Of a stretch of DNA of 64,000 nt, positions 13,597-48,900 are shown piece by piece (the stretch's first letter is position 1; every line of letters starts with the position of its first letter). A program made the position numbers and the translations under genes. The DNA is from Rickettsiales bacterium (GTDB lineage Bacteria > Pseudomonadota > Alphaproteobacteria > Methylaequorales > Methylaequoraceae): positions 15,678 through 79,677 of the forward strand of contig NZHE01000026.1 in assembly GCA_002691145.1 (NCBI GenBank). Direction: 5' to 3'. The notes beneath the pieces were generated by a model. The model was given only the letters and a program-made list of their open reading frames with translations. It ran no database searches and had not been told where the DNA came from.

Positions 13597-14835
13597 TTAA
13601 TTTACCCATCTTTTAGATAAAAGTTTTGTTCCCTCTTTTATACCAAGAGGAGTTAATGGAACCATTCTATTTGAAAAAATTTTTTTTATAATGCTTATCG
13701 ATTCAGTTATTTGCCATTTATTTTCTGGAACGGGATTTATCCATAAACTAGAGGACCATTTTGAAAGGGCTCTACTCAACCAAAATTTTCCGGATTCTTG
13801 GTTATAATGTTCATTACTAGCTCCGGGCATCAATATCTCGTAAGGACTCATAGAGGCATCACCAACAAAAATACATTTAAAATCTTTACCATAAGTTCTT
13901 ATAATTTCATTTGTAGAAGATCTTTCGCTCCATCTTCTTTTATTATCTTTCCAAACACCCTCGTACAGACAATTATGAAAATAAAAGTATTCTAAATTTT
14001 TAAAAACACTTTTAGCGGCAAAAAATAAACTCTCAACTTTTTTTATATGATCATCCATTGAGCCACCAACATCTAAAAAGAGAATAACTTTTAAAGAATT
14101 TTCTTTTTGTTTTTGTTTTTTTATATCTAAATAACCATTTTTAGCAGAAAAATTAATAGTATTTTTAATGTCAATCTCTTCTTCTATGCTTGTTCTAGCC
14201 CATTGTCGCAAATGTTTTAAGGAAACTTGTAAACCCCTAGAGTTTAATTGTTTTGAATCATCGAAATCTTTGAATCTTCTTTTGTCCCATGTCTTTAAAG
14301 CCTTTCGATGTCTGCTTTCACTTTGTCCGATCCTAATTCCCATTGGATTATAACCATAAGCACCGAATTGTGAGGTTCCAGAAGTTCCTATCCATTTATT
14401 TCCACCTTCATGTCTTTTTTTTTGTTCTTCAAGTCTTTTTTTAAATTTTTCCATAAGTTTCTTGAAACCACCGGAGGACTTTATTTTTAACATTTCTTCT
14501 TTAGAAAATTCCTTCTCAAATAACTTTTCTATCCAATGATTAGGAATACTAAAAAATTTAGCAACATCTTCAAATTGGATCTTTTCGATAGACTTAAAGT
14601 GTTCACCAAAAATAACATCAAACTTATCTATCAGGTTTTCATTTTTTATTAACGTAGTTCTGGTTAAAAAGTAAAATTCTTCAATATCATATTGAATAAA
14701 ATTTAACTGTAATGCTTTTAATAAAGTTAAATATTCATTCAGAGAAACCGGCAAATTTGAAGCTTTTAACTTTATAAAAAATTCTAAGAACATTAAATCA
14801 ATCGTTATTTCTTGACATAAATGCCAATTGCTCAA
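13597..14835 (-). CDS. von Willebrand factor A (VWA) domain protein, CoxE-like partner of the MoxR ATPase
   Basis: 412 aa; VILFLDVGGSMDD (MIDAS-type DxSxS) and the C-terminal VWA fold fit the CoxE/COG3552 architecture. The track start is a TTG; the biological start is probably the ATG ~42 nt downstream (MFLEF...). Confidence 0.75.
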   Translation of the reverse strand: MSNWHLCQEITIDLMFLEFFIKLKASNLPVSLNEYLTLLKALQLNFIQYDIEEFYFLTRTTLIKNENLIDKFDVIFGEHFKSIEKIQFEDVAKFFSIPNHWIEKLFEKEFSKEEMLKIKSSGGFKKLMEKFKKRLEEQKKRHEGGNKWIGTSGTSQFGAYGYNPMGIRIGQSESRHRKALKTWDKRRFKDFDDSKQLNSRGLQVSLKHLRQWARTSIEEEIDIKNTINFSAKNGYLDIKKQKQKENSLKVILFLDVGGSMDDHIKKVESLFFAAKSVFKNLEYFYFHNCLYEGVWKDNKRRWSERSSTNEIIRTYGKDFKCIFVGDASMSPYEILMPGASNEHYNQESGKFWLSRALSKWSSSLWINPVPENKWQITESISIIKKIFSNRMVPLTPLGIKEGTKLLSKRWVN

Positions 14836-15635
14836 AAAGTTGTATATCTTGCTCGTTTTTGATTAAAGCTCCATAAAGTTTAGGGAGAATTTCTTTAGAA
14901 TTTTGTTTTAAATCACTGGGTTCCAAATCTTCAATAAGCAGCAATTTAATCCAATCTAAAGCCTCAGATGTAGATGGTTTTTTTTTTAAGACCTGGAACT
15001 GATCTTATTTCAAAAAACTTAAAAATAGCAGCATTTAATAATTGTTTTTTTATATCAGGAAAATGCACTTTAACAATTTTTTTTAATGTTTCAATTTCCG
15101 GAAATTGAATAAAATGAAAAAAACATCTTCTTAAAAAAGCTTCTGGCAATTCTTTTTCATTGTTTGAAGTTATAATTATAATTGGTCTAGACTTTGCTTG
15201 AATTAGTTTATTAGTTTCAAAAACAAAAAACTCCATTCTATCTAATTCTTGCAGTAAATCATTTGGAAATTCAATATCTGCTTTATCAATTTCGTCAATG
15301 AGTAAAACTAATTTTTCACTGGATTCAAAAGCCTCCCAAATTTTTCCCTTTTTAATATATTTTTCAATATTATCAATATTTACTTTCATTTGACTATCTC
15401 TTAATCTGCTTATAGCGTCAAACTCATACAATCCTTGAGAAGCTTTGGTTGTCGATTTTATGTTCCACTCAATGATTTTTAAATTTAAACTTTTTGCGAC
15501 TTGTCTAGCTAATTCTGTTTTTCCTGTTCCTGGTTCGCCTTTGACAAGCAACGGTTTTTCTAGGGAAATAGCTGCATTAACAGCAACAGTTAAATCTAAA
15601 GTAGATATGTAATCTTTAGTACTTGAGAAGTGCAT
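14798..15635 (-). CDS. MoxR-family AAA+ ATPase (CoxD-like), interrupted by a 1-nt frameshift in an A10 run (plus-strand T10 at ~14978-14987)
   Basis: Track ORF 14964-15635 (223 aa) has the Walker A motif GEPGTGKTELA and a Walker B/sensor region. Reading with A9 instead of A10 continues into PGLKKKPSTSEALDWIKLLLIEDLEPSDL...FMSRNND*, giving a normal ~278-aa MoxR. Confidence 0.75.
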
Positions 15636-15697
15636 ATAAACTATTCATAATGTTTGAATCTAAGCATAATAGTCAAAATTTTAGTTAAAATATTTTT

Positions 15698-16123
15698 TTA
15701 TAAACATTTTCTGCATATACCTGTAATCTCTATGCTCCAACTTTTTTGTTCAAACATATTTTCTTGTAGAGTTTTTTTGAATATAGATGGCAGTTTTCCA
15801 AAATGAGATTCGGTAACAGCACCACAATCATTGCATATCATGAATTGAGTTCCTTTATGAGGCTTGTCAGATTCGCATATTGTATACGCATTTAAACTCT
15901 CAATTTTATGAATAAAGTTAATACCTCTCCAAAAGTCAATTGCTCTATATACTGTTGGTGGTTTTGGATTCTTTACGAGTTTTGACAGTTCAGATAAGAT
16001 ATCATAAGCTTTAATGGGTCTTTTGCTTGAAGAAACAATCTTCAGCACATTCAACCGAGACTTAGTAACCCTATGCTTATTTTTAATACAAAAATCTAAA
16101 ACTTTTTTTTCGAAAGATTTCAT
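15698..16123 (-). CDS. zur: Fur-family transcriptional regulator, probable Zur
   Basis: 141 aa; winged-helix N-terminus and two CxxC pairs (CNDCG...CRKC). Located in a cluster with Zur boxes, a COG0523 gene and metal transporters. Confidence 0.65.
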   Translation of the reverse strand: MKSFEKKVLDFCIKNKHRVTKSRLNVLKIVSSSKRPIKAYDILSELSKLVKNPKPPTVYRAIDFWRGINFIHKIESLNAYTICESDKPHKGTQFMICNDCGAVTESHFGKLPSIFKKTLQENMFEQKSWSIEITGICRKCL

Positions 16124-46886: not shown

Positions 46887-48164
46887 TTTTTCTTAACTAT
46901 CTCTTTTATTTCATGCATGTACTTTTGTAAAACTTTAGGCACAATTATATTCCCATTCTTTTGTTGGTAATTTTCAATAATTGCTACTATTATTCTTCCA
47001 ATGGCTAAACCTGAGCCATTAAGTGTATGAGGATATATTTTTTTTTTTTGAAATATTATCTTTATACCTCATTTTCATTCTTCTTGATTGAAAATCTTTA
47101 CAATTAGAACAACTTGATACTTCTCTGAATTTTCTTTGCCCAGGCATCCATACTTCAAAATCAAGAGTATATGAAGAGGAAAATCCAATATCAGCTGTGC
47201 ACAACTCCATTATTCTGTAATGAAGCTCTAATTCTTTTAAAATATTTTCTACACAATTAACCATTCTATCCAATTCTTTTTCAGAATTTTTTGGGCTTGT
47301 AATAGAAACAAGTTCAACTTTTCCAAACTGATGTTCTCTAATCAACCCCTTGGTATCAATTCCAGCAGATCCTGCTTCCAATCGAAAACAATTTGTATAT
47401 GTTGTGTACCTTAGCGGCAAAACATCTGGATTAAGTATCTCTTCCCTATGTAAATTAGATAAGCTTACCTCTGCTGTAGGGATAAGCCACAAATTTTTTG
47501 AAGTTTGGAATAAGTCCTCTTTAAATTTTGGTAGTTGACCTGTTCCAAAAAGTGTGTGTGACTTCACTAATTCAGGAACAATTACTTCCTTATAACCATA
47601 AGAAATAGTATGTTTGTCTAACATATAATTTACCAATGCCCTATGCATAGTTGCTAAGTCAGTTTTTAGAATAGAAAATCTTGAACCAGATAACTTAATC
47701 GCCCTCTCGTAATCTAGCAAATCAAGATTTTCTAAAATAGCCACATGATCCTTTGGTTCAAAATTAAATTCTTTTTTTTTTCCAAATTCTTTTATAATAT
47801 TGTTATCATGTTCTGATTTACCTAAAGGAGTTTTTTTATCAACAAGATTAGGTATGAGTTCCATAATTGAATTTATCTGAACTAATTTTTCATTCAAACT
47901 CTGATTAAGTTGGTTGCAATTTTTTTTAATATCTAGAACTTCATCTTTTAGATTTTTAGCCAGGATCACATCAGTCTTAGAAACTTGTCCAATCTTTCTT
48001 GAAATTTTATTTCTTTTTTCTTGTTCATTTTCAAGCTCTTTCAAGAGACTTAAGTACTGTTCATAAATTGAAATTATGACTTTACTTTGCGGCTCAATAT
48101 TTCTTTTTGATAAGAGTTTGTCAAATTCGTTTGGATTATCTTTTATGAATTTTATATCATGCAT
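46883..48164 (-). CDS. serS: seryl-tRNA synthetase, interrupted by a 1-nt frameshift in an A12 run (plus-strand T12 at ~47038-47049)
   Basis: Track ORF 47019-48164 ends prematurely after ...[16 protein letters not shown]. Reading A11 gives ...[55 protein letters not shown], the canonical SerRS C-terminus, for a total of 426 aa. Confidence 0.85.
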
Positions 48165-48166
48165 AA

Positions 48167-48900
48167 TTATTTATTATCTTTTTCGAAAAATATAATCAAC
48201 AAAATAGCAAATTCATAAAATAAATATAAAGGAAGAGATATTACTAACTGTGAAATTACATCAGGAGGTGTAAGTACCGCACTAAATAGTAAAATTAAAA
48301 TAAAAAAAATCTTTCTTTGTTTTTTTAGAATTTTTACTGTCAAAATATTAATTTTACATAATGTCATTAAAATTATTGGAAATAAAAAAGAAACACCACC
48401 AGAAAATAACAAATACATTGTTAGTTTCATATATTCACCGTACCTAGATTCCAATTCAATAGAAAAAAAATTCTCTGTATTTAAAGTCTGAAACGAAAGA
48501 AAAAAATTCCAAACTATAGGAATTAAAATAAAATAAGAAAATAGTACTCCTAAAAAAAAAAAGAAAAGGTATTAAGCAAAATATAGGTAAAAAGAATTTT
48601 TTTTCCTTTTTATATAAAGCAGGAGAAATAAAAAGGAAAAATTGTAATACCAAAATTGGAAAAGTTGTCAAAAATGAGGCGAAAAAAGATATTTTAAGAT
48701 TTGAAATAAATACTTCTGGCAAACCAGTAAAAATCATCCTTGTTTGTTCACTATTTTCGAGTATTTTATATAGTGGTAAGGATAAAATTTTTGCAACAAT
48801 GTCTGCTATATAAAAATAAAAAAAAAAAACTAACAAAAAATATAAAAAAACAAAATAAAAGTCTATTTCTTAGCTCTGCAAAATGACTTAGATAACTCAT
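48167..48900 (-). CDS. tatC: twin-arginine translocase subunit TatC, interrupted by two 1-nt frameshifts (T8 run at plus ~48463-48470 and T11 run at plus ~48818-48828)
   Basis: Three pieces: an unlisted N-terminus MSYLSHFAELRNRLLFCFFIFFVSFFF (HL.ELR.RL motif) plus track ORFs 48456-48836 and 48167-48454 (LTPPDVISQ motif). Removing one T at each run restores a ~243-aa TatC. Its ATG overlaps the tatB stop (ATGA). Confidence 0.8.

Follow-up and report, generated by a model that had tools for sequence, protein, structure and literature searches.

The 64,000-nucleotide stretch of DNA analysed here (the window), taken from contig NZHE01000026.1 of a marine alphaproteobacterium labelled "Rickettsiales bacterium", carries six single-base frameshifts distributed over five genes, namely serS (serine-tRNA ligase), tatC, and the genes for a YdjM-family inner-membrane protein, a DUF815 AAA-type ATPase, and a MoxR-like ATPase. 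In a comparison with 24 independent assemblies of the same population, the window proved to be nearly alone in its out-of-frame run lengths, and the six frameshifts are most probably (with a probability of about 90%) homopolymer-length errors in the consensus of the contig assembly rather than a feature of the organism's genome.

Three-frame translation, together with the assembly comparison, located six frame-breaking length changes of one base pair (bp), every one of them inside a run of A or T (Table 1), and no disrupted gene was found in the window beyond these five. A first-pass annotation, made from the sequence without database searches, had described six single-base frameshifts in five genes, all in A/T runs of 8–12 bases, of which four require one base fewer and two require one base more; each of these statements was confirmed. 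The sites themselves were correctly listed in five cases. The sixth, assigned to a T8 run of tatC, is of uniform length in all assemblies and is merely the place where the wrong frame meets its stop codon, the corrected frame reading through it, while the real second site of this gene at 48818–48829 had been missed. The window has a guanine plus cytosine (GC) content of 27.9%, is 94% coding, and contains 132 mononucleotide runs of at least 8 bases, 121 of which lie inside genes. Since such runs occupy only 1.8% of the window, the location of all six 1-bp insertions or deletions (indels) within them (6/6, p about 4e-11) is not a matter of chance.

Table 1. The five disrupted genes and their A/T runs. 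Coordinates and run letters refer to the + strand of the window, with the letter in the gene in brackets where it differs; fractions give the covering assemblies of the main survey that carry the stated length.
Gene	Gene position	Strand	Corrected product	Break	Run in window	Run position	Length elsewhere	Change needed
MoxR-like AAA/AAA_5 ATPase	14798..15635	-	278 aa	codon 217	T10 (A10 in gene)	14978..14987	T9, 9/9	one base fewer
YdjM-family inner-membrane protein	19165..20171	+	335 aa	codon 76	T12	19391..19402	T13, 10/10	one base more
DUF815 AAA-type ATPase	44621..45390	+	256 aa	codon 214	A8	45260..45267	A9, 10/10	one base more
serS	46883..48164	-	426 aa	codon 372, immediately ahead of HTLNGSG	T12 (A12 in gene)	47038..47049	T11, 9/10 (exception L021)	one base fewer
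tatC, site 1	48167..48900	-	243 aa	two breaks, codon 24 (this run) and codon 113 (site 2)	A12 (T12 in gene)	48818..48829	A11, 6/7 (exception L076)	one base fewer
tatC, site 2					A11 (T11 in gene)	48552..48562	A10, 8/8	one base fewer
tatC, further run				no frameshift	A8 (T8 in gene)	48463..48470	uniform in all assemblies	

The comparison set was assembled from contigs of Tara/ENA and Logan metagenomes, fetched by exact-sequence look-up of intact neighbouring proteins, and includes three single-cell genomes (GCA_902615335.1, GCA_902525415.1, and GCA_902538015.1). Its 24 independent assemblies are 99.2–100% identical to the window and cover every window position 2–10 deep. Depending on the site, the in-frame length is present in 6–10 of the 7–10 covering assemblies, and all three single-cell genomes are in frame. 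The five genes were called intact, at 278, 335, 256, 426, and 243 amino acids (aa), in all of the assemblies with the exception of serS in one (L021) and tatC in another (L076). In a survey of every position, only seven indels separated the window from the majority, comprising the six homopolymer changes and one in-frame insertion of 3 bp. A further contig fetched after the main survey (L086) likewise carries T11 at the serS run and A11 at 48818–48829 in tatC. Against the 125-kilobase (kb) Tara scaffold_33, the sole four indels over 20.8 kb were those of DUF815, serS, and the two tatC sites. Upon correction of the six runs, all five products became 100% identical to the proteins of scaffold_33 (278/278, 335/335, 256/256, 426/426, and 243/243).

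The same picture emerged from exact look-up of the products in a protein collection. Each of the five intact sequences was seen on 5–27 contigs, with the commonest MoxR-like variant on 21, and a contig of 215,100 bp is among the carriers of the intact alleles. The truncated MoxR-like product of 223 aa was found on no other contig by exact look-up, whilst the truncated DUF815 product, also of 223 aa, was found by the same means on no contig at all and is listed solely as a protein of the source metagenome-assembled genome (MAG), MAI85271.1. Truncated SerS was returned from only one unrelated contig of 5.5 kb, carrying the same T12. Pattern scans of metagenome contigs for both tatC runs at variable lengths, and for the serS run, gave zero matches, the collection scanned having returned no contig with these flanks. 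The broken fragments correspond to proteins deposited in GenBank from a single MAG contig of 215,087 bp annotated "Rickettsiales bacterium": SerS is represented by a fragment of 381 aa (MAI85275.1/OUV52840.1), TatC by a C-terminal fragment of 120 aa (MAI85276.1/OUV52841.1, locus tag CMM91_10165), DUF815 by fragments of 223 aa and 53 aa (MAI85271.1 and MAI85272.1), and YdjM by fragments of 80 aa and 261 aa (MAI85246.1 and MAI85247.1).

With regard to the identity of the genes, the predicted assignments of serS, tatC, YdjM, and DUF815 hold, each being based on a model match that runs the full length and extends across the break. Corrected SerS scored 490.7 bits with TIGR00414 (cut-off 301.65) over profile positions 1–418 of 418, with the Pfam tRNA-synt_2b core at residues 222–399, and corrected TatC scored 168 bits with TIGR00945 (cut-off 132.7) over profile positions 3–215 of 215, with Pfam TatC at residues 5–223. 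Pfam YdjM (PF04307) covers residues 1–176 of its product, across the break, and Pfam DUF815 (PF05673) covers residues 19–250. These four of the names given by the first-pass annotation are thereby upheld by the models; the fifth, moxR, is to be read more loosely. Its product matches Pfam AAA and AAA_5, the bpMoxR model lies below its cut-off (22.3 vs 27), as does MadB_ATPase (115 vs 475), and on these matches the protein is a generic MoxR-like AAA/AAA_5 ATPase only. The adjoining gene bears a faint match to VWA_CoxE-like, which fits a MoxR-VWA pair.

The dependence of the discordance on run length was pronounced. No run of 5–7 bases in the window was discordant with the other assemblies (0/943), compared with 1/68 runs of 8, 0/36 of 9, 1/15 of 10, 1/6 of 11, and 3/6 of 12. 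Taken over all runs of at least 8 bases, the window was discordant at 6/132, against 6/960 pooled over the other assemblies and zero in the three single-cell genomes. At runs of at least 11 bases, the other assemblies, with the window excluded, were discordant in 4/89 run-by-assembly observations.

The substitutions of the window behave quite differently from its indels. Sixteen substitutions are private to the window, of which 8 are synonymous, 6 are conservative (T/A, L/V, T/I, I/L, V/I, and K/E), and 2 are intergenic; judged by these, the window is a genuine, slightly distinct genotype under normal purifying selection. All of its private 1-bp indels, on the other hand, break reading frames, including that of serS and, twice and without compensation, that of tatC, while most of the indels by which the other assemblies differ from one another are intergenic. 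A technical process is the simplest explanation for substitutions that are subject to selection alongside 1-bp indels that ignore it. The earlier remark that the flanks of the disrupted genes are under purifying selection does not discriminate between error and slippage, since the flanks are identical to the intact allele. The seventh indel, an in-frame gain of 3 bp (TAA in + strand letters) that is private to the window at about 1441–1443, lies in a DUF1289 gene (1389–1586, - strand) and is absent from 7/7 covering assemblies; it looks like genuine strain variation, since the frame is preserved.

Under the proposed consensus error, the true tracts of the organism would all be in frame (A9 in the MoxR-like gene, T13 in YdjM, A9 in DUF815, A11 in serS, and T11 and T10 in tatC) and would have arisen as a by-product of a GC content of 28% and of AAA/TTT codon usage, the source assembly being off by one base at each of them. 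The style of the accessions (MAI.../OUV..., CMM91_) points to the Tara Mediterranean/global MAG sets as the likely origin of the MAG. According to the passages of PMC5507172 that describe these sets, per-sample Megahit contigs of at least 2 kb were pooled, collapsed at 99% identity with CD-HIT-EST, and cross-assembled with Minimus2; the reads were Illumina reads of Tara Oceans, and no read-based polishing features in those passages. A procedure of this kind can fix miscounts of ±1 at long runs, and this pipeline is put forward as the probable origin only, the miscounts having presumably entered at some step of it. Two other origins were considered and discarded. Unpolished Nanopore sequence is ruled out by the 0/943 discordant runs of 5–7 bases, and single-cell amplification is ruled out because the fragments trace to a MAG and no discordance at runs of at least 8 is seen in the three single-cell relatives. 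The homopolymer-error explanation offered by the first-pass annotation is thus strongly supported by the 24 assemblies, with the amendment that the sequencing chemistry or single-cell amplification which it named is probably not the origin, the assembly consensus being the better candidate.

Errors of this type have been documented elsewhere. Luo et al. (2012, PMC3277595) reported that homopolymer errors affect about 1% of the genes of Illumina contigs at 10x, and a larger share in 454 contigs, with a bias towards A/T and towards longer runs. In Nanopore genomes of Pelagibacter, 1.8% of genes were hit by frameshifts from the assembly of AT-rich homopolymers ("Pelagibacter, resolved", bioRxiv 10.64898/2026.04.03.716430). 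As in those two studies, the 1-bp indels of the window fall only in A/T runs and are commoner with length, intact housekeeping genes are split or truncated by them, and they are brought to light by comparison with intact close homologues. The window differs in its presumptive source, which would be Illumina contigs joined by an overlap-consensus merge and not 454 or Nanopore reads, in that runs shorter than 8 bases are unaffected (as seen for the runs of 5–7), and in that about 8% of its genes are broken as opposed to 1–2%.

Several observations weigh against attributing the frameshifts to consensus error. The run lengths are known from assembled sequences, and the attribution to Minimus2 follows from the style of the accessions. 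The longest runs of all, T14 in argS (53163–53176) and T11 and T12 in valS (60933–60943 and 60945–60956, one base apart), lie in essential aminoacyl-tRNA synthetase genes and are in frame and invariant in 7–8 covering assemblies, so that, small as these numbers are, length alone does not predict which runs are affected. Moreover, four of the six out-of-frame lengths, those of serS, YdjM, and both tatC sites, recur in one other assembly each. The serS T12 of the window is shared by KOPF15 scaffold_10117 (L021), the A12 of the N-terminal tatC run by ERZ27286591 k119_778851 (L076), in which tatC is called at 222 aa, and the YdjM T12 by a contig of 1,267 bp at 4x (ERZ17094661, L085). The fourth recurrence, A11 at tatC 48552, is on ERZ17173334 NODE_824192 (L086), the contig fetched after the main survey, and such a recurrence on a contig of 112,726 bp at 19.9x is less easily explained by purely random read error than by systematic miscounting or a true minor allele. 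These same-site recurrences show that the runs in question are intrinsically hard to count; chiefly on account of them, the contig at about 20x included, and of the invariance of the longest in-frame runs, a residual probability is retained for real variation in tract length.

Sporadic length changes of other kinds were also encountered in public assemblies of the population. The assembly with the 222-aa tatC (ERZ27286591) carries a private, frame-breaking T12 at the scpA run (50179–50189), an assembly labelled CENJ (L004) has a private, frame-breaking A13 at the start of uvrA (37320–37331, codon 3–6), and a T14-type product of YdjM was seen on a contig of 734 bp (P0040). Among the single-cell genomes, a private frame-breaking indel is present at A4 in uvrA (38672–38676) in L002, a frame-breaking A8 in an Exo_endo_phos gene (55752–55758) in L077, and a 4-bp deletion in a SPOR-domain gene (51813) in L003.

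The alternative which retains the most weight, though a distinctly unlikely one, is that the A/T tracts are hypermutable, with ±1 alleles that segregate at low frequency, sometimes become the consensus of an assembly, and are tolerated through slippage of RNA polymerase and possibly of the ribosome. It would also embrace the in-frame tracts of A9 to A14 in serS, tatC, scpA, uvrA, argS, and valS. Tamas et al. are said to have described, in 2008, poly(A)-tract frameshifts in Buchnera aphidicola that are rescued by transcriptional slippage, the frameshifts of the endosymbiont having reportedly been verified in genomic DNA. Slippage on A/T runs in both Buchnera and Blochmannia is likewise reported in work cited in PMC5009743. 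The recurrences described above, one of them at about 20x, speak in favour of such a mechanism, as do the lengths of the runs, five of the six having 10–12 bases, where bacterial slippage on runs of 9 or more A or T is established (PMC5009743). Tracts of this kind can also persist, as is seen from the N-terminal poly-T tract of tatC, whose frame is kept throughout the clade at lengths from T12 to T18. In related alphaproteobacterial MAGs and single-cell genomes (L022–L063), this tract, which encodes the Phe-rich first transmembrane helix, is in frame and measures T12 in many of them, T14 in both L023 and L032, T15 in L042, and T18 in L025.

The survey of assemblies nevertheless tells against hypermutable tracts rescued by slippage. 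The in-frame length prevails at every site, the single-cell genomes included, and an out-of-frame length is never the population consensus and occurs in singletons only, which is not the behaviour of a genuine genomic state shared by strains or fixed in the population. Outside the window, no assembly has more than two such changes together, whereas six occur in its 64 kb, a density corresponding to about 8% of genes broken (5 of about 65). In tatC, two uncompensated +1 changes would demand two slippage events per transcript. The DUF815 run of A8 is short for efficient slippage, and the substitutions of the window are under ordinary purifying selection. Four of the six sites would further need the deletion of one nucleotide from the RNA, whereas genome-wide measurements showed insertions and not deletions to prevail at homopolymer runs (PMC5574713). 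The likeness to Buchnera aphidicola and Blochmannia extends to the AT-rich genome, the long A/T tracts in essential genes, and the 1-bp frameshifts inside them; the difference is that here the out-of-frame state belongs to one assembly or to rare singletons, the consensus is in frame, and the case is made from DNA sequence alone. Phase-variable contingency loci, in which homopolymers act as on/off switches, share with the window a reading frame set by the length of a mononucleotide run, but the genes concerned here are housekeeping genes (serS and tatC) and not surface or restriction genes, the tracts stem from codon bias, and on and off alleles do not both occur commonly. The suggestion of the first-pass annotation that the frameshifts might be genuine and rescued by slippage is therefore unsupported: the long tracts are real, and their out-of-frame lengths are not fixed in the population and occur at the most as rare singletons.

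A second alternative, that the five genes are true and very recent pseudogenes of one strain at the onset of gene decay, is highly improbable. The frameshifts do exist in the deposited sequence, and the MoxR-like, YdjM, and DUF815 genes might plausibly be dispensable. serS, on the contrary, is an essential gene and is cut just before HTLNGSG, and tatC is broken twice. With the runs corrected, there are zero amino-acid differences from the intact alleles and hence no secondary damage, the substitutions of the same strain are under purifying selection, and six independent inactivations at a private divergence of 0.025% are implausible. Because the products, once corrected, match the intact alleles perfectly, decay of the genes is excluded.

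Least credible of all is programmed recoding as in dnaX or prfB, by which the frameshifts would serve the formation of two products or the regulation of expression; they do sit on slippery homopolymers, but almost none of the assemblies of this population, at 99.2–100% identity, shows the out-of-frame arrangement, and serS, tatC, and DUF815 are read straight through in 30–40 related species (SerS 41–65% identical). The comparison of orthologous loci which the first-pass annotation had proposed as a check was in this way carried out, with the related assemblies in frame and the related species reading through. In the genome-contig scan that served to check the conservation of the tracts, the closest SerS was 64% identical, and the A11 tract of serS is lineage-specific and not found in relatives. 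Rfam and tRNA scans of the window returned three tRNAs only, with no recoding or frameshift-stimulating element above threshold. Programmed recoding is effectively refuted, the out-of-frame state not being conserved.

Natural indel hotspots among the assemblies were noted in several other parts of the window. These are an intergenic A10 region in which several alleles occur (24858–24869), an in-frame 3-bp indel of a hypothetical gene in 3/8 assemblies (10249–10253), the spacer upstream of a TonB-dependent receptor gene (10513–10556), an AT-dinucleotide repeat (54971), and the spacer between tRNA-Cys and tRNA-Asn (63427–63471). Contigs of 110–215 kb from many ocean samples are 99.7–99.96% identical to the window (0.4–2.9 single-nucleotide polymorphisms per kb), an unusually clonal and easily assembled population for a Pelagibacter-like planktonic bacterium of 28% GC.

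The practical import of the finding is that of a data-quality flag on a public MAG contig and on two series of protein accessions, in which the annotations of serS, tatC, YdjM, and DUF815 are fragmented and the MoxR-like gene is also broken. Fragments of this sort can raise pseudogene counts artificially, mislead calls of pangenomes and auxotrophies, and introduce truncated proteins into databases. Nor is the problem confined to this contig, as about 4–5% of run-by-assembly observations at runs of at least 11 bases in this AT-rich lineage are miscounted, in other short-read assemblies too. Given that long runs are miscounted in short-read assemblies, claims of slippage rescue in streamlined marine bacteria call for evidence at the level of both reads and RNA. 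If the tracts were hypermutable after all, the phenomenon known from Buchnera and Blochmannia would be extended to a free-living, streamlined planktonic bacterium. As a matter of biology, the frameshifts as most probably understood here would be of no consequence to the organism, the five genes being intact in the population.

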